IMG/VR virus record: IMGVR_UViG_3300045988_031517 | Coordinates: 1-5,327 of that record | Source of the DNA: a virus | DNA length: 5,327 nt | Direction: 5' to 3' (one strand) | In this document: positions 1 through 5,327 of the stretch, piece after piece | How positions within the stretch are numbered: position 1 is the first letter of the stretch | How the letters are laid out: each line of letters begins with the position of its first letter | Made by a program: the position numbers and the translations under genes | Notes under the pieces: generated by a model | Told to the model about the DNA's origin: nothing | The model's database searches: none | Seen by the model: only the letters and a program-made list of their open reading frames with translations

Positions 1-141
1 AACTTGTTGTTAATATCTCAGTAAAATTGCTTTTCTCTCCAAACGTTATATGTCACATTTAGGGTAGGCTTTGTGTCTGCCCTAATTTTAGATTAGGAGG
101 TTGTCTTGTGAATAATGATCAGCTTATGAATCAATTAACCA
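1..141. repeat. Terminal redundancy: 1-141 is identical to 5187-5327. This is the circular-genome overlap (assembly or over-extension artefact), giving a true unit length of 5186 nt.
   Basis: Direct comparison of the first 141 nt with the last 141 nt of the window, which are identical. The VP2 start codon and RBS appear in both copies (108 and 5294). Confidence 0.95.
60..90 (+). terminator. Weak hairpin (TAGGG...CCCTA, 5-bp stem) followed by ATTTTA, downstream of the VP1 stop. Possible leaky terminator after the capsid gene.
   Basis: taggg (60-64) is complementary to cccta (80-84) and is followed by a-tttt-a (85-90). The stem is short and the loop is 15 nt, so the call is weak. Confidence 0.2.
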
Positions 142-782
142 GTATTTCCGCTCAGAATACCGCGAAATCGCAAGAGTTTGCTCGCGAAGAGATGCGTTTC
201 AACGCCGCCGAGGCTCAGAAGAATCGAGATTGGCAGGCTCAGCAGTCCGGATCCGCTCATCAGCGTGAGGTGTTGGATCTTCAGAAAGCCGGACTCAATC
301 CTGTTTTGAGTGCTGGCGGCTCCGGCGCGCAGACTGGATCCGGGTCTAGCGCCTCTGGTGCAAAAGGTGATGTTGATACAAGCGTCGTTCCGGCGCTGAC
401 GTCTATCATCGTTAATCAGCAAAATAACGCTAACGCTCAGGCGATTGCTCAGATGCAGAGAGATGCTACACTGGAAGCCGCCCGGATTCAGCAGTCTACT
501 GCTTTACAGGCGGCTAACATTCAGGCCGCTGCTACTCGCTTCGCCAGCCTTAACAGCGCACAAGCGTCTCGTTACGCTTCTGATATGGGCTATGCAAGTG
601 CTAAATATTCTTCCAACAATAGTCTTACTGGTACAAAATACAGTAGTGATAAGAGTTCTTCTGCTTCTCGGTATGGCACTAAGGTCAACGCCGCCGTCCA
701 GAAACGCGGCCAGAATCTTAATCTTCTCGGCTCTCTCGTTGGCTCTGCGTCTAGCTTCTTAGGTAAGCTGTTCGGCCGCTGA
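108..782 (+). CDS. VP2: Minor capsid / DNA pilot protein VP2 (gokushovirus-type). GTG start 7-8 nt after an AGGAGG RBS.
   Basis: A 224-aa ORF rich in A/Q/S/N low-complexity sequence. It carries the conserved pilot-protein block '...EMRFNAAEAQKNRDWQ...SAHQREV.DLQKAGLNP.L' and a hydrophobic C-terminus (LLGSLVGSASSFLGKLFGR). AGGAGG lies at 95-100. Position after VP1 matches the VP4-VP5-VP3-VP1-VP2 gokushovirus synteny. Confidence 0.8.
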   Translation: MNNDQLMNQLTSISAQNTAKSQEFAREEMRFNAAEAQKNRDWQAQQSGSAHQREVLDLQKAGLNPVLSAGGSGAQTGSGSSASGAKGDVDTSVVPALTSIIVNQQNNANAQAIAQMQRDATLEAARIQQSTALQAANIQAAATRFASLNSAQASRYASDMGYASAKYSSNNSLTGTKYSSDKSSSASRYGTKVNAAVQKRGQNLNLLGSLVGSASSFLGKLFGR

Positions 783-910
783 TACCCGCTTTTTCCTTGG
801 GTGCCTGTCTCTCTGTCTAGTGGTTGCGGCCGCGTAGCGGACGGAATGCGCGGAGCGGCGGGAACCCATGGGGCGGCGGGCCGTCCGCGCAAACGGATGG
901 AGCCGATCAA
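783..910. other. GC-rich structured island between VP2 and the promoter region. It has nested inverted repeats (GCGGACGG 837-844 / CCGTCCGC 881-888), palindromes GCGGCCGC (826-833) and CCCATGGG (865-872), and direct repeats of GGCGGCGGG (854-862, 872-880).
   Basis: By eye the composition is roughly two-thirds G+C, against a moderately AT-rich genome. No plausible ORF is present: the only ORF through it is antisense and has no RBS. It is followed directly by an A8 run and an AT-rich promoter block. Confidence 0.6.
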
Positions 911-931
911 AAAAAATATTGTCGATGAGTA

Positions 932-960
932 TTGACAAAACTAATTGAATCAATTATAAT
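932..960 (+). promoter_or_regulatory. Consensus sigma70-type promoter: TTGACA (932-937), 17-nt spacer, TATAAT (955-960). Predicted TSS is around 967.
   Basis: Exact match to both consensus hexamers with the optimal 17-bp spacing, in an AT-rich block, 45 nt upstream of the 1005 ATG. Confidence 0.7.
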
Positions 961-982
961 AAATAATGTAATCAATCATAAT
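945..982 (+). promoter_or_regulatory. Two operator-like 16-bp direct repeats, TTGAATCAATTATAAT (945-960) and TGTAATCAATCATAAT (967-982), matching at 13 of 16 positions and spaced 22 bp start to start. The first overlaps the -10 element and the second overlaps the TSS.
   Basis: Alignment by eye. The 22-bp phasing is about two helical turns. Each repeat contains an imperfect palindrome ATTGAaTCAAT. This is a typical arrangement for autoregulatory HTH-repressor operators. Confidence 0.4.
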
Positions 983-1004
983 TAATAGAAAGGAATGATA
1001 AAAA

Positions 1005-1250
1005 ATGACATCCCACAATATTAGAAAATTATTAGGATTCTCGCAGAAAGATCTTGCTGATTGCTTCGGCATTCCCATTGCTACCGTCCGTAATTGGGAT
1101 TCGAAGGATTGCATGCCGGCTTATATCGTTGAAATGTTGTCTTATATTTTTACCTGCGAGAAATACAAGACTCCTCCGTGTGTGCGTTTTCTTCTCGAAA
1201 GAAAGCGTGAGGAATTGGAGGCAGAATTGGAGCCAGAATGTACCGATTAG
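1005..1250 (+). CDS. Small (81-aa) helix-turn-helix DNA-binding protein of the XRE/Cro-like family. Putative transcriptional regulator.
   Basis: ATG preceded by AAAGGA (990-995). The HTH signature 'FSQKDLADCFGIPIATVRNWDSKD' fits the XRE/Cro helix2-turn-helix3 pattern (Q.eLA..hG.s..TV.rWe.g). A perfect sigma70 promoter sits immediately upstream. The C-terminus is acidic (EELEAELEPE). Confidence 0.6.
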   Translation: MTSHNIRKLLGFSQKDLADCFGIPIATVRNWDSKDCMPAYIVEMLSYIFTCEKYKTPPCVRFLLERKREELEAELEPECTD

Positions 1251-1255
1251 CCGAC

Positions 1256-1287
1256 CAGACCAGTTACTACTTGATGTAACTGGTCTG
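1256..1287 (+). promoter_or_regulatory. Perfect 12-bp inverted repeat, CAGACCAGTTAC-tacttgat-GTAACTGGTCTG. It is a hairpin (cruciform in dsRF) and a candidate rolling-circle origin or operator.
   Basis: Reverse complement of 1256-1267 equals 1276-1287 exactly. The 8-nt loop contains ACTTGAT, which matches the phiX174 origin nick motif (CAACTTG|ATA). It lies between the HTH gene and the Rep gene. Confidence 0.45.
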
Positions 1288-1318
1288 AGTGACACAAAAA
1301 ACACAAAACAAGCTTTTT

Positions 1319-1352
1319 TGTCCGTCGTAGACGGACATTAAGAGTTTTTTTT
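1319..1352 (+). terminator. Terminator-like hairpin TGTCCGTC-gta-GACGGACA (1319-1337), flanked by T6 upstream and T8 (1345-1352) downstream. Possible terminator for the HTH-gene transcript.
   Basis: 8-bp GC-rich stem with a 3-nt loop. The T8 run begins 7 nt after the stem, which is not the ideal immediate T-tract. Confidence 0.35.
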
Positions 1353-1354
1353 AA

Positions 1355-1376
1355 GGGGGACTTGGCAGAGTCCCCC
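1355..1376 (+). promoter_or_regulatory. Hairpin GGGGGACT-tggcag-AGTCCCCC in the Rep 5' leader, ending 8 nt before the Rep Shine-Dalgarno sequence.
   Basis: Exact 8-bp inverted repeat with a 6-nt loop. AAGGAG (1385-1390) and the ATG at 1397 follow. Confidence 0.4.
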
Positions 1377-1396
1377 AGCACCGAAAGGAGTATTAT

Positions 1397-2422
1397 ATGA
1401 CCTGTTTTCACCCTCTTCGTGGTGCGTATACTAATGGTATAACAGCGAGCGGAAAAAAACAAGTGAAAGTATTTCCCACTGCTTCGACGGGAAATAAATA
1501 TGTTTATCAGAATAGAGCTAAACCAACTGTTTTCGAGTGTAGCGATCATGCGTTCGACGTTGGCACATGGAAGAAGCTTGACACGTTCTTAATTCCCTGC
1601 GGTCAGTGTGTTGGTTGCCGCTTGGACTATTCCAGACGTTGGGCAACGCGTCTGATGCTGGAGTTAGAATGCCATACGAGCGCGTTCTTCCTCACTCTCA
1701 CGTATGACGATGATCATATCGTCCGCGGTGAGAATTTAGCTTATACTCTCGTCCCCGAGGATGTGCAGTTGTTTCTTAAGCGTCTGCGGCGTGATCAGGA
1801 GTATCGCGGTATTGATGCTAAGATCCGGTTTTTCTGTGCTGGCGAATATGGTGATAAGTTCCACCGGCCGCATTATCATTTGATCGTTTATGATTGGATC
1901 CCGCCGGAAAATGATCTGCAATTCCTCAAGATGTCATTCCACGGCGACAAGTATTATACCAGCTTGTCGCTTCGAAAGCTTTGGCCTTATGGTTATAATC
2001 TGGTAACTAATGTATGCTGGAAATCTTGCGCGTATGTTGCGCGTTATATCCTCAAGAAGCAGAATGGCCACAAAGCGGATAAATACGAAGATCTTGGTAT
2101 CGAGCCTGAATTTTCGCGTATGTCGCGAAAACCCGGTATTGGTAAGGAATATTATGATCTTCATGCTAAAGAGATGCTTGATCGTGGTTACGTGCAGATG
2201 CCTGATGGCCTTAAGGCTCCGATTCCTAGGTATTTCGACCCATTTTTTGAGATGGATTTCCCCGCGGAGTATGAGAAACTCTCCGAGGATCGCGTCTTGA
2301 CCGCGAAAATGATGCAACAAGTTAAGGAATATGCCACCGATCTGGATTACTTCGAACAGCTTTTGCTTGACGAGGACGCGAAAAAATTCCGAGCTAAGAA
2401 ACTTGTAAGACCCGATATTTAA
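1397..2422 (+). CDS. VP4: Replication initiation protein VP4. A rolling-circle HUH endonuclease of the Microviridae gene A family.
   Basis: 341 aa. RCR motif 1 is FLTLTY (nt 1688-1705). HUH motif 2 is HYHLIVY (nt 1871-1891). Motif 3 has two tyrosines, YVARYILKK (nt 2033-2059), the YxxxY arrangement of phiX174 gene A-type Reps. A CGQCVGC Cys cluster lies near the N-terminus. The N-terminus 'MTCFHPL' is typical of gokushovirus VP4. The RBS is AAGGAG at 1385-1390. Confidence 0.92.
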   Translation: MTCFHPLRGAYTNGITASGKKQVKVFPTASTGNKYVYQNRAKPTVFECSDHAFDVGTWKKLDTFLIPCGQCVGCRLDYSRRWATRLMLELECHTSAFFLTLTYDDDHIVRGENLAYTLVPEDVQLFLKRLRRDQEYRGIDAKIRFFCAGEYGDKFHRPHYHLIVYDWIPPENDLQFLKMSFHGDKYYTSLSLRKLWPYGYNLVTNVCWKSCAYVARYILKKQNGHKADKYEDLGIEPEFSRMSRKPGIGKEYYDLHAKEMLDRGYVQMPDGLKAPIPRYFDPFFEMDFPAEYEKLSEDRVLTAKMMQQVKEYATDLDYFEQLLLDEDAKKFRAKKLVRPDI

Positions 2423-2435
2423 TCGGGTCTTTTTT
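2407..2435 (+). terminator. Rho-independent terminator overlapping the Rep stop codon: stem AAGACCCGAT / ATCGGGTCTT, loop ATTTA, then T6.
   Basis: 2408-2416 agacccgat is complementary to 2422-2430 atcgggtct, extendable by 2407/2431. A TTTTTT tract immediately follows. The TAA stop lies at 2420-2422 inside the loop and stem. Confidence 0.65.
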
Positions 2436-2437
2436 AG

Positions 2438-2464
2438 TTGACAATACCCCCCCCGGTATACAAT
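2438..2464 (+). promoter_or_regulatory. Candidate promoter for the VP5-ORF-VP3-VP1 block: TTGACA (2438-2443), a spacer containing a C8 homopolymer (2447-2454), then TACAAT (2459-2464).
   Basis: The -35 hexamer is perfect and the -10 (TACAAT) is good, but the spacer is only 15 nt at the current C8 length. It sits directly after the Rep terminator and 25 nt before the VP5 RBS AAGGAGG (2475-2481). Confidence 0.35.
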
Positions 2465-2488
2465 GGAAGAAAAAAGGAGGTATTAACC

Positions 2489-2602
2489 ATGGCAAAAAAA
2501 ATGAAACGTGGTCGTGATCGTTCTGTGTTTCGCAAAACCGCCGATCGCACCAAAAAACTTAACGTGAGACCATTATTATTCCGAGGAGGTATCAGACTGT
2601 GA
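2489..2602 (+). CDS. VP5: Small (37-aa) arginine/lysine-rich DNA-binding protein, the J-like/VP5-type ssDNA packaging protein of gokushoviruses.
   Basis: MAKKMKRGRDRSVFRKTADRTKKLNVRPLLFRGGIRL. It is highly basic and has the C-terminal 'RP..FRGG.RL' tail characteristic of gokushovirus small DNA-binding proteins. A strong RBS AAGGAGG sits 7 nt upstream. The six-frame ORF track missed it because of its size. Confidence 0.7.
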   Translation: MAKKMKRGRDRSVFRKTADRTKKLNVRPLLFRGGIRL

Positions 2603-2886
2603 AAGGATTACATAATCTTATCTATGCTTTGCATGATGATGTTGCCGGCAATGTGCTTCAGTATTACATCTGCCCTGATCCTGTATGGGCTGAACGTACT
2701 TTCCGGACGCTTGTCGGCCAGATTACATGTGGCACTCCGTCGGAATTCTCGTTCCGTCTGGTAGGTATGCTTGACGATCTGACTTACATTAACGCGGATG
2801 ATGTTCTTAATTCCGCGAAAGCTGACGGTATTGATTGTAAGGAGGTTATGCATGGAAGCGACTATGCACTGGAAAACAATGTATGA
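2599..2886 (+). CDS. Hypothetical 95-aa protein of unknown function (mildly acidic). Its GTG start overlaps the VP5 stop (GTGA), so it is translationally coupled.
   Basis: GAGGAGG (2583-2589) lies 9 nt upstream of the GTG at 2599. It fills what would otherwise be a 250-nt non-coding gap in a compact genome. Its 3' end overlaps the VP3 start by about 35 nt. I recognise no motif in it. Confidence 0.45.
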   Translation: MKGLHNLIYALHDDVAGNVLQYYICPDPVWAERTFRTLVGQITCGTPSEFSFRLVGMLDDLTYINADDVLNSAKADGIDCKEVMHGSDYALENNV

Positions 2887-3370
2887 TACCTTTTTCGATC
2901 CGGTGGAAGTGAGCACTTCCGCCGGAGATGAGACTCGCGCCGAGTATGTTCTGTCCGTCGGTAAGGACGGACGGAAATGTCTGTCTAAAGTGAGAGACGT
3001 AGACATCAGCGCGGAAATTAACAGCTACGCGCCTGGGTGTGATATGGCTGTGATTTTGAACAAGTTGCAGGCTGGTCTGATCCCAACTGATTACGATGAG
3101 TCTAATTGTGTTGATCTTACCGTTCTTCCAAAAGATGTGGTTGAAGCCATGCAGAAAACACGCGAGTTCCGCGATCAGTTCTCGGATTTTCCGGAAGAGG
3201 TGCAGAAGCTTTTCCAGTATGACGCTAACCTGTTTATGCAGTCGTTCATTGACGGTTCGTTGAATGATGCACTGGCTACCCTTCAGGCTCCGAAGCCTGA
3301 TCCGAAGCCTGATCCGAAGCCTGATCCGAAGCCTGATCCGAAGCCTGATCCGGAACCTAAGAAGGAGTGA
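2852..3370 (+). CDS. VP3: Internal scaffolding-like protein VP3 (172 aa from the ATG at 2852) with a C-terminal (KPDP)n low-complexity tail.
   Basis: AAGGAGG (2839-2845) lies 6 nt before the ATG at 2852. The ORF track's longer version starts at 2798 but lacks an RBS. Size and position (between VP5 and VP1) fit gokushovirus VP3. Acidic stretches, FRDQFSDFPEE, are typical of scaffold proteins. The assignment rests mainly on synteny. Confidence 0.6.
   Translation: MEATMHWKTMYDTFFDPVEVSTSAGDETRAEYVLSVGKDGRKCLSKVRDVDISAEINSYAPGCDMAVILNKLQAGLIPTDYDESNCVDLTVLPKDVVEAMQKTREFRDQFSDFPEEVQKLFQYDANLFMQSFIDGSLNDALATLQAPKPDPKPDPKPDPKPDPKPDPEPKKE
3290..3361 (+). repeat. Tandem 12-nt repeat CCGAAGCCTGAT in 5 perfect copies (3290-3349) plus a degenerate sixth, CCGGAACCTAAG. 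It encodes PKPD x5 (...KPDPKPDPKPDPKPDPKPDPEPKKE) at the VP3 C-terminus.
   Basis: Read directly from the sequence. The repeat is in frame with VP3. Confidence 0.95.
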
Positions 3371-3471
3371 TGTGTTTGGATCTTTTATGGGTTATGATTC
3401 TATTAATTATTTTCGATATCGGTCTCAATGTGGCCGTGTTGACTATGCTTGCCGGAAAGGAGTAATTATTG

Positions 3472-5178
3472 ATGGCATTTTCGAAGAATCTTATTGATTC
3501 GAATAGCTTTTTCAGCTCTTACAAGAGCGACTTGGAACGTCCCCGATCTCGTTTCGATCGAAGCAGCTCCGTTAAGACATCATTCAATGTTGGTGATCTC
3601 GTCCCGTTCTATCTTGACGAGGTTCTCCCTGGTGATACGTTCGATGTCGAGACAAGTTTTGTGACACGTCTTCAGACGCTGATCACGCCACCGATGGATG
3701 ACCTGTTTTTGGATATGTATTACTTTTTCGTTCCTTCTCGTCTCTGCTGGTCTCACTGGAAGGAGTTCATGGGCGAGTCCACTACTAGCTGGACGGCTGA
3801 TGTGACTTACCAGGTTCCGCAGTTGGTTGTAGCAGATAATGCGGCTAATAAAAAAGGTATCCAGGGATCTATTTTGGATTATCTTGGTGTTCCGATTGAC
3901 TGGTTTGGTTCGATGTCTATTTCCCGCCTTCCCATTAATGCCTATAATCTGATCTGGAACGAGTGGTTCCGTGATGAGAATTTGCAGGATGAGATTCTTG
4001 TGGATATTGATGATGGCAATGTGAATTTTGATGTCAACAATTCCGCGAAAGGTGGAAAACTGCTCAAGGTTAATAAGTTGCATGATTATTTTTCTTCTTG
4101 CCTTCCGTCTCCGCAGAAAGGCGATGATGTGACGATCTCGTCTATTTTTGGCGATCTTCCCGTCGTGACGCGGCAGAAAAACGTTGTGAGCGGTGCTCAC
4201 CCGCCTATGTCGTTTCTGCGTGATAATGGTAGTACATTTCCGGAAGCTCGTTGGCTGGCTATTAGCAGTCCGGCTACTATCCTTCCCAATCGTCCGGAAC
4301 CATTTCATAATCTTGTTGCCGGAAAGGATACGCAGGCTAGTAATGGTATTTCTGGTACCAACATTGGCTTGTTTCCGACTAACCTTGTTGCGGATCCGTC
4401 CTCCGCGGATCCTCTGACGGTTAATAGTTTGCGTTTGGCTTTCGCAACTCAGCAGATGCTCGAGACTGACGCTCGTTCCGGTTCTCGTTATGTCGAGCTT
4501 CTTCGCGGTCATTTCGGCGTGATTTCCCCCGACGGTCGCTTACAGCGTCCGGAGCTTCTGAGTGCTAACCGTACTCGGATCAACGTCCATCAGATTGTTC
4601 AGCAGTCCGAGACGGCATCAACTCCGCTTGGTACTACTGCGGCCATGTCTCTTACAAATAATACAGACAATAGTTTCGTTAAGTCCTTCACGGAGCACGG
4701 TTTCGTTATCGGTGTCATGTGCGCTCGCTATAATCACACCTATCAGCAGGGTATCAACCGTCTTTGGTCTCGTAAGGATCGACTGGACTATTATTTCCCG
4801 ATTCTCGCAAATATCGGAGAACAGCCAGTTTATACGAAGGAGTTGTACGCTAAAAGTCTAAACGAGGTTGGTAATCCAGATGGTGGAGTATTCGGTTATC
4901 AGGAAGCTTGGGCTGATTATCGCTACAAGCCGTCTCAGGTCACTGGTGAGATGCGTTCTGGTATCACCAACTCTTTGCAGTCCTGGCATTTCGCCGACTA
5001 TTACCAGAATAAGCCTACACTGAGTTCCGGTTGGATCCAAGAGGATCTGTCCAACGTTGATCGTACACTTGCGGTCACGTCTAAGCTCGCGAATCAGATT
5101 TTTGGAGATTTCTATGTTAAGAATCTGACCACTCGTGTAATGCCGGTTCACAGTATCCCGGGCTTAAGAAAACTGTAA
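3472..5178 (+). CDS. VP1: Major capsid protein VP1 (F-like) of Gokushovirinae. The ATG at 3472 lies 9 nt after AAGGAG. The ORF track's first codon is an in-frame TTG at 3469.
   Basis: 568 aa. The N-terminal block 'RSRFDRSSSVKTSFNVGDLVPFYLDEVLPGDTF' matches the conserved gokushovirus VP1 N-terminus (SFDRS...KTTF..G.L.P...DEVLPGDTF). Its size and large central insertion are typical of gokushovirus capsid proteins. Confidence 0.92.
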   Translation: MAFSKNLIDSNSFFSSYKSDLERPRSRFDRSSSVKTSFNVGDLVPFYLDEVLPGDTFDVETSFVTRLQTLITPPMDDLFLDMYYFFVPSRLCWSHWKEFMGESTTSWTADVTYQVPQLVVADNAANKKGIQGSILDYLGVPIDWFGSMSISRLPINAYNLIWNEWFRDENLQDEILVDIDDGNVNFDVNNSAKGGKLLKVNKLHDYFSSCLPSPQKGDDVTISSIFGDLPVVTRQKNVVSGAHPPMSFLRDNGSTFPEARWLAISSPATILPNRPEPFHNLVAGKDTQASNGISGTNIGLFPTNLVADPSSADPLTVNSLRLAFATQQMLETDARSGSRYVELLRGHFGVISPDGRLQRPELLSANRTRINVHQIVQQSETASTPLGTTAAMSLTNNTDNSFVKSFTEHGFVIGVMCARYNHTYQQGINRLWSRKDRLDYYFPILANIGEQPVYTKELYAKSLNEVGNPDGGVFGYQEAWADYRYKPSQVTGEMRSGITNSLQSWHFADYYQNKPTLSSGWIQEDLSNVDRTLAVTSKLANQIFGDFYVKNLTTRVMPVHSIPGLRKL

Positions 5179-5293
5179 TATATTGTAACTTGTTGTTAAT
5201 ATCTCAGTAAAATTGCTTTTCTCTCCAAACGTTATATGTCACATTTAGGGTAGGCTTTGTGTCTGCCCTAATTTTAGATTAGGAGGTTGTCTT

Positions 5294-5327
5294 GTGAATA
5301 ATGATCAGCTTATGAATCAATTAACCA
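5294..5327 (+). CDS. VP2: Duplicate of the VP2 5' end (GTG start at 5294) inside the terminal redundancy. This is the same gene as 108-782, not a second copy.
   Basis: Sequence identity with 108-141. Confidence 0.9.
   Translation, partial: MNNDQLMNQLT

Follow-up and report, generated by a model that had tools for sequence, protein, structure and literature searches.

The DNA analysed here, referred to below as the window, is a stretch of 5,327 nucleotides covering positions 1 to 5,327 of IMG/VR virus record IMGVR_UViG_3300045988_031517. Bases 1-148 recur at 5180-5327, which indicates a circular genome of approximately 5179 nt. Every gene of the window is carried on the plus strand:

108-782, plus strand, VP2-like gene
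1005-1250, plus strand, CI-like HTH protein (Pfam Phage_CI_repr)
1397-2422, plus strand, Rep/VP4, the presumed nicking enzyme (Pfam PF23343 REP_ORF2-G2P, E = 3e-20)
2489-2602, plus strand, small basic protein
2599-2886, plus strand, VP5-like open reading frame
2852-3370, plus strand, VP3 scaffold protein
3472-5178, plus strand, VP1 capsid protein

Pfam matches in the window also include Phage_F (E = 1e-143) and Chlamy_scaf, and the translation of Rep shows the motifs HYHLIVY and YVARY. The genome is that of a gokushovirus-type microvirus. Its nearest GenBank relative is Dulem virus 137, with VP1 and Rep approximately 80% identical.

A perfect sigma-70 consensus, TTGACA-17-TATAAT (932-960), precedes the CI-like HTH gene, and the 15-bp palindrome TAATTGAATCAATTA (944-958) sits in the spacer of this promoter. 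Dulem virus 137 and the related locus L131 retain the palindrome apart from a single change, and it is likely an autoregulatory operator of the HTH gene. A repressor-like gene of this kind is unusual for a gokushovirus. A non-coding, GC-rich insert (783-905, approximately 70% GC) separates the stop codon of VP2 from the HTH promoter and is missing from Dulem virus 137. The insert was considered as a structured element or a (-)-strand origin; BLAST matched it to no phage sequence, and the fold predicted for it was no better than that of shuffled sequences (z = -0.74). A hairpin, GGGGGACT-TGGCAG-AGTCCCCC, is located at 1355-1376, approximately 20 nt ahead of the Rep ribosome-binding site; its stem and the subsequent CACCGAAAGGAGT are kept in Dulem virus 137, and it may control Rep expression or have another role in replication. 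After Rep, at 2438-2466, there is a promoter-like site, TTGACAATACCCCCCCCGGTATACAAT, with a poly-C tract in its spacer, and sites of this type were also found at L006 4042, L132 1472, L133 1184, L135 4940, L136 3330, and L137 4863. The tract varies from 8 to 10 C across close relatives and thereby alters the -35/-10 spacing; slipped-strand changes of this kind could tune transcription of the late genes. In the VP3 scaffold gene a tandem 12-nt repeat (3291-3350) encodes five PDPK units at the C-terminus of the protein.

The main subject of this analysis is an intergenic hairpin that begins 6 nt beyond the stop codon of the HTH gene (1250), with its end 110 nt upstream of the start codon of Rep (ATG, 1397). 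Its parts are as follows:

1253-1298, plus strand, conserved element, hairpin plus 3' flank (covariance model R1, 65.6 bits, E = 8e-15)
1256-1267, plus strand, 5' arm of the stem, CAGACCAGTTAC
1268-1275, plus strand, loop, TACTTGAT, with the core CTTG at 1270-1273
1276-1287, plus strand, 3' arm of the stem, GTAACTGGTCTG
1290-1295, plus strand, 3' flank TGACAC, candidate Rep-binding part of the origin

The first-pass annotation of this DNA had described a perfect 12-bp stem at 1256-1287, and both coordinates and sequence proved to be exact. CAGACCAGTTAC/TACTTGAT/GTAACTGGTCTG is the longest perfect inverted repeat of the window, and a perfect 12-bp stem arose in 1 of 200 shuffles of the genome. 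Folded as single-stranded DNA the hairpin yields -12.4 kcal/mol (z = -4.8), and none of 200 shuffles folded equally well. The loop had been read as the phiX174 nick motif ACTTGAT. This heptamer occurs once in the window (1269-1275) against 0.94 expected, which is chance level, and the resemblance to phiX174 can therefore not rest on it. The looser CTTGWT was observed 11 times against 6.8 expected. The composite motif CTTGWT-N15-GACAC, in contrast, occurs once against 0.01 expected, so that the comparison with chance fails for the heptamer alone and holds for the composite. Likewise, the CTTG core of the proposed motif stands, and its leading A varies among relatives. A further suggestion, that CAGACCAG in the 5' arm echoes the AGACCAC of phiX174, had to be abandoned: among relatives the sequence of this arm changes, in covariation with the 3' arm, and the likeness is coincidental. 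The flank that corresponds to GACCAC of phiX174 may be TGACAC at 1290-1295, on the 3' side.

BLAST searches with the whole genome and with 780-1420 as queries were performed against 50,697 phage records. Fragments of VP1 aside, the stretch 1255-1299 (approximately 45 nt) was the only part that aligned in otherwise unalignable microviruses, and the element was 90-98% identical in MH572493, ON840039, MZ364287, MG945474, and OR148999. The matched microviruses came from tunicate, rat, robin, dog, and human samples. The exact 14-mer TACTTGATGTAACT was present in at least 120 IMG/VR contigs; among the matches listed, approximately 85 were microviruses of 4-6 kb, and the remaining contigs were long, lacked the hairpin, and look like chance matches. 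Close relatives of the window (71-98% Rep identity) retain the element. In L131 and L132 the first loop base is C, not T, and in L136 and L137 the stem CCAGTTAC/GTAACTGG has become CCCATTAC/GTAATGGG. The element was not found in L133 (83% Rep identity), a broken contig with an adapter remnant exactly at the expected site, and its absence there is uninformative. The first bases of this contig (1-30) contain what is left of a Nextera adapter, …AGATGTGTATAAGAGACAG, and the contig is interrupted within the HTH gene (contig end 4909). The break is an assembly artefact, possibly caused by the hairpin. The expectation that the element would be conserved in relatives while its surroundings drift was borne out, with both flanks and stem sequence drifting and compensatory changes in the stem.

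The relatives also bear on a second reading offered in the first pass, in which the palindrome serves the adjacent CI-like HTH protein as a dimeric operator. In favour of this reading, the palindrome is perfect and lies 6 nt past a gene whose product matches Phage_CI_repr. However, the HTH gene was found in only seven loci, all within the clade of the window (the window, L131, L132, L006, L133, L136, and L137), whereas the element is present in approximately 150 genomes without it, including the close relatives L134, L135, and L138. Moreover, the HTH gene sits on the other side of the element in L136 and L137. The arms of the element covary freely, which a sequence-reading dimer would not tolerate, and its loop and one flank are asymmetric and conserved. 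The palindrome TAATTGAATCAATTA in the HTH promoter spacer is a better operator candidate. With the HTH gene confined to one small clade and the element distributed across gokushoviruses, we rejected the operator reading as extremely improbable.

Covariation of the arms was assessed in an alignment of 73 distinct copies of the element (A4). The eight outer stem pairs covary heavily; pair 9/36, for example, is AU in 34 copies, CG in 30, GC in 6, UA in 2, and unpaired in 1, and pair 10/35 is AU in 44, CG in 29, and unpaired in none. The covariation score was reached by none of 500 shuffles. In the alignment 87% of cells were paired, compared with 73% in shuffles (0 of 500 as high), and sliding the partners by 1-3 columns reduced pairing from 87% to 24-39%. 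Changes on both sides occurred in 7 of the 12 pairs. The four inner pairs behave differently: the 3' GTAA is fixed in A4, and its 5' partner (TTAC) is often unpaired. The invariance of alignment columns 28-31 is in part due to most members having been found with a query containing GTAACT, and GTAA was common yet not universal in an independent sample picked by VP1 (see below). Thus, the 5' arm is conserved in relatives only as the complement of the 3' arm, whereas in the 3' arm GTAA, and usually also CTG, is conserved as sequence. Since inner and outer pairs differ in this way, the conserved unit consists of a stem of at least 8 bp that is free in sequence, a loop, and a 3' arm that is read as sequence. 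The perfect 12-bp stem of the window is one form of this general stem-loop pattern.

Loop and flank were compared in 121 elements that were found by regular expression and anchored on CTTG[AT]T, so that CTTG is present in all of them by construction. The two bases after CTTG were AT in approximately 95% of these copies and otherwise TT. The covariance model found loop variants such as CTCG (CTCGAT) in a few copies, and CTTGTC was seen in loci that were searched separately. The stem is followed by (A/G)NTGACAC, and the TGACAC flank is approximately 90% conserved in the class of genomes with the element on the same strand as the genes. From the G of CTTG to GAC the distance is 17 nt in 91 of the 121 copies and 18 nt in 24; in the window it is 17 nt (G1273 to G1291).

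Most A4 members had been found with a loop-containing query, and for this reason 76 further genomes were gathered by VP1 similarity alone as an independent sample and searched with a covariance model built from A4. The model detected the element in 65 of the 76 genomes, and 61 of these matches had E < 0.01. When hairpins were sought more loosely, variant copies appeared in 6 of the 11 genomes without a covariance match, bringing the total to approximately 71 of 76. Cultured isolates carry the element on the gene-sense strand: Chp2 with a 14-bp stem and the loop tctaCTTGAT, SpV4 with a 10-bp stem and the loop attaCTTGTTataa, and phiMH2K with an 11-bp stem and the loop ..ctaCTTGTTgtaa. In Chp2 and phiMH2K the copy lies in the non-coding region before the Rep gene. 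Neither the covariance model nor the loose hairpin search found the element in Chp1. The viruses and prophages that carry it are tied to Chlamydia, Spiroplasma, Bdellovibrio, Enterobacteriaceae, Negativicutes, and Alphaproteobacteria. Conservation across such different bacterial hosts points to recognition by a virus-encoded protein rather than by a host-specific factor. In 110 of 145 copies the element is located no more than 600 nt upstream of Rep or immediately behind the Rep stop codon, a position that fits a cis-acting initiator.

Copies in bacterial chromosomes, together with the inverted arms around an 8-nt centre, are compatible with a site-specific recombination site (dif-like or attP) for prophage integration or dimer resolution, and integration at dif is known for some gokushoviruses (PMC7062461). 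In the prophages L236, L247, L220, and L221, however, the element is intact and internal, not split at the junctions, and in prophages within long bacterial scaffolds phage genes flank it on either side. In Intestinirhabdus alba (L236, within a 182-kb scaffold) it lies between Rep (1239-2009) and VP1 (2799-4415), and it is likewise intact and internal in a Phascolarctobacterium faecium prophage. The arms covary rather than match a host recombinase site, and the correlation between orientation and base composition described below is not predicted for a site acting as double-stranded DNA. We therefore give a recombination site hardly any credence.

Sequences matching the element were also found as CRISPR spacers, in Natronospirillum operosum (L234, approximately 3537; NZ_SRMF01000001) and in Marinomonas arctica (L235; NZ_QHJF01000002). 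These spacers correspond exactly to the part of the element made up of loop, 3' arm, and flank, TACTTGATGTAACTGGTCT[A/G][G/A]GTGACACC..., and the Marinomonas spacer matches window positions 1268-1295 across 28 nt. The Natronospirillum and Marinomonas hosts have met gokushoviruses that bear the element. Half-elements of the form TACTTGATGTAACTG-N7-TGACAC, without the 5' arm, occur at L222 7690, L223 3175 (minus strand), and L238 2312 (minus strand). These loci belong to Bacillota/Clostridia genome bins, lie outside CRISPR arrays, and show neither a capsid gene nor Rep in the flanking sequence available; remnants or junctions of prophages could account for them. In L009, L033, L046, L050, L068, L086, L102, L217, L220, and others, a further hairpin, short, GC-rich, and with a loop of the GAATA/GAATG type (e.g. 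GGCCGAATAGGCC), is located 5-30 nt 5' of the element. It is frequent in aquatic and gut gokushoviruses and could be a terminator or a second replication signal.

Among the VP1-picked genomes, 30 carry the element on the coding strand and 35 carry it on the opposite one, a ratio that is not a population estimate because one metagenome project dominates the sample. Copies on the coding strand lie within 600 nt upstream of Rep (75/106) or upstream of VP1 (22/106), and inverted copies lie directly after the Rep stop codon (25/39) or just upstream of Rep (9/39). These orientations bear on the possibility that the hairpin acts at the RNA level, behind the HTH gene, where it would terminate transcription intrinsically or stabilise the mRNA. 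Such a role would agree with a stable hairpin directly past a stop codon. However, the element is antisense to all genes in the approximately 35 inverted VP1-picked genomes, and in the window it has no T-tract, the bases after the hairpin being AGTGACACAAAAAAC. A terminator scan listed 59-85 and 2407-2431, not the hairpin, and a conserved loop with a one-sided flank is not a terminator feature. A search of Rfam matched no family and returned only a sub-threshold Trp-leader at 2362-2436 (E = 0.55). A function in RNA is consequently very improbable.

Base composition at four-fold degenerate sites was measured on the coding strand of VP1 plus Rep, with the following values:

Element on the same strand as the genes (n = 106): T 0.53, A 0.15, (T-A)/(T+A) = +0.56
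Element on the opposite strand (n = 39): T 0.12, A 0.41, (T-A)/(T+A) = -0.52

The skews of the two classes were significantly different (Mann-Whitney, p ~3e-18). In a neighbour-joining tree of VP1 the orientation switched at least six times, and in five of six inverted lineages the skew was strongly reversed relative to the normal skew of their neighbours (L122 -0.78 vs. L011 +0.75, L005 -0.63 vs. L104 +0.76, and L117/L027 -0.6 vs. L073 +0.80). By our own calculation, at least five of six reversals would arise by chance with a probability of ~3e-5, given a base rate of approximately 9% negative genomes in the same-strand class. Within L011/L122, L104/L005, and L073/L117 only 70-80 nt around the element align in reversed orientation, and the genomes are otherwise too divergent. 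The human gut gokushovirus KT264791, a GenBank record, follows the same pattern: it carries the element on the minus strand (3593-3640), abutting the VP4 stop codon, and its coding strand contains 38% A and 19% T.

Since the skew switched with orientation in five of six lineages, the element marks the T-rich strand. Genes are oriented alike in both classes, so the reversal cannot be due to transcription-linked bias. The virion strand of single-stranded DNA phages is T-rich, and the four-fold sites of phiX174 gene A bear this signature (T 0.49, A 0.13). The CTTGAT strand is presumably the strand that spends time single-stranded, i.e. the virion strand. There are exceptions: skew is normal in one inverted contig (listed both as L085 and as L216), and 10 of the 106 same-strand genomes, the isolate phiMH2K (-0.24) among them, show a weak reversal. 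phiMH2K (L128), L042, L075, and L120 carry the element on the coding strand and yet have more A than T at four-fold sites (-0.23 to -0.43), from which it follows that base composition is not set by strand identity alone. With these exceptions in mind, we favour, at somewhat better than even confidence, the interpretation that the orientation of the hairpin defines the packaged strand and that in several gokushovirus lineages the packaged strand is antisense to every gene. To our knowledge, Microviridae have been described as uniformly positive-sense. If the interpretation is correct, these lineages are negative-sense single-stranded DNA phages that arose by at least 5-6 switches, each of which reset the T/A asymmetry, and they include an abundant clade of the mammalian gut, with "Human gut gokushovirus"/Gokushovirus WZ-2015a (KT264791) as its representative. 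Polarity in the Microviridae would then be evolutionarily flexible and readable from base-composition asymmetry.

The orientation result fits a (+)-strand and a (-)-strand origin equally, because both must lie on the virion strand. At a (-)-strand origin (ssi/sso) the host primase, primosome, or RNA polymerase would prime the complementary strand, and Rep would nick elsewhere. Such origins depend on the host, and those of phiX174 and G4 already differ from each other. This function would suit a strand-specific hairpin whose loop is conserved and whose orientation follows the T-rich and presumably virion strand, and it has been considered for hairpins upstream of Rep in other microvirus clades (PMC9865509). 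Four observations favour the (+)-strand origin instead. First, the loop core is the nick motif of a homologous initiator, that of phiX174, and also matches the pC194 origin. Second, the spacing to the second block, GACAC, mirrors that in the phiX174 (+)-strand origin. Third, the element usually adjoins Rep, a location for which a host-recognised site offers no reason. Fourth, it is kept in viruses of very different bacterial phyla, whereas a (-)-strand origin depends on host priming and is expected to be host-specific and independent of Rep. A (-)-strand origin is thus unlikely, though it is the alternative to which we give the most weight.

We conclude with considerable confidence that the hairpin is the nick site of Rep (VP4) and the (+)-strand replication origin of this gokushovirus. 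The origin first proposed from the window alone gains support from conservation in relatives, from a composite motif above chance level, and from three cultured isolates. Counting against it, the architecture in phiX174 differs (no hairpin, and a location inside gene A), some copies read CTTGTT, CTTGTC, or CTCGAT, and none was found in Chp1. In the proposed mechanism the inverted repeat would extrude as a cruciform in the supercoiled replicative form, or fold on single-stranded DNA, and so expose the loop. Rep, a predicted HUH endonuclease with two putative catalytic tyrosines and a homologue of phiX174 protein A, would recognise the sequence of loop and 3' arm, yTACTTGATGTAA, and probably bind the TGACAC flank. 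By analogy with phiX174, CAACTTG|A, the cut is predicted between G1273 and A1274, and Rep would become covalently joined to the 5' end. The free 3'-OH at the nick would prime rolling-circle synthesis, and at the regenerated site Rep would cut again and re-ligate, releasing a circular strand for packaging. As the circle released by Rep is the one that would be packaged, the 5'-CTTGAT-3' strand would be the virion strand.

In the openly searchable literature we found no experimental nick mapping for any gokushovirus and no description of a gokushovirus (+)-strand origin or of the sequence of this element, and the eLife resurrection paper does not mention an origin. As a kind of element, HUH-Rep origins nicked at CTTG|AT are known. 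What is new, to the extent that the searchable literature contains no description of it, is the hairpin-presented, intergenic, and invertible form across the Gokushovirinae. This subfamily makes up most of the known microvirus diversity and a major part of gut and aquatic viromes. With an element of approximately 45 nt whose nick is predicted at one defined phosphodiester bond, the origin becomes directly testable, e.g. in the culturable E. coli gokushovirus, and gokushovirus replication is tied to the CTTG|AT nick site of phiX174 and pC194. The element further provides a gene-independent marker by which microvirus genomes can be recognised and their strand assigned, as well as a natural coordinate origin for circular assemblies, and it accounts for the pile-up of CRISPR spacers and BLAST matches at this position.

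Several known systems were compared with the element. The n'/PriA site of phiX174, the primase origin of G4, and plasmid sso elements are orientation-specific hairpins whose site of action is the single-stranded virion strand; host proteins recognise them, they are poorly conserved across priming systems, and we know of none that contains a Rep nick motif. CRESS-DNA virus origins (geminivirus, circovirus) share the architecture of a covarying stem and an invariant loop motif, with a loop presumably cut by an HUH Rep, a flank that is possibly Rep-binding, and an adjacent rep gene. They differ in the loop motif, which is of the NANTATTAC type, in a Rep with a single tyrosine and an SF3 helicase domain, and in their eukaryotic hosts, and they have no sequence relationship to the gokushovirus element. 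Reekeekee- and roodoodooviruses have conserved hairpins between Cap and Rep that are also intergenic, beside Rep, and endowed with a conserved loop and compensatory stem changes (PMC9865509). These clades are different from the gokushoviruses, and the comparison was made on the published description of the hairpins. The 2022 study considered a role as (-)-strand origin and left the function unassigned (PMC9865509).

In sequence, the double-strand origin of the pC194/pUB110 plasmid family is similar to the element in carrying CTTGATA, which in pC194 is presumably nicked between G and A; many gokushovirus copies likewise read CTTGATA. The pC194 origin sequence given in PMC7072734 contains this heptamer. 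Both groups have HUH Rep initiators, those of the plasmids belonging to the Rep_1 family, and the two are likened by origin sequence alone. We know of no covarying hairpin with a TGACAC flank in origins of this plasmid family.

The phiX174/Bullavirinae origin is the 30-bp CAACTTG|ATATTAATAACACTATAGACCAC inside gene A. GenBank J02482 annotates the viral-strand origin of phiX174 at 4306, within CAACTTGATATTAATAACACTATAGACCAC, which places the nick after CAACTTG. A search with covariance model R1 gave no match to this origin. A second origin candidate in the window, AACTTGTTGTTAATATC (1-25 / 5180-5204), resembles CAACTTGATATTAATAAC of phiX174 and was discarded, as it is not conserved in Dulem virus 137. 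The phiX174 site has no hairpin and an AT-rich spacer, whereas the gokushovirus spacer is the 3' arm of a covarying stem; the former lies inside the Rep gene, and the latter is intergenic, upstream of Rep, after Rep, or upstream of VP1. The bases at -5 to -7 differ as well. On the other hand, CTACTTG|ATG of the window and CAACTTG|ATA of phiX174 match at 8 of 10 positions, with the CTTG|AT core in common. Both have a second block, GAC(C)AC in phiX174 and GACAC in the element, which follows the G at 17 nt in the former (G4305 to GACCAC) and at 17-18 nt in the latter. The initiators are homologous, as judged by the match to PF23343, the HUH motif, and the YxxxY tyrosine pair. Both sites lie on the T-rich strand, and each is extremely conserved in sequence within its own group.
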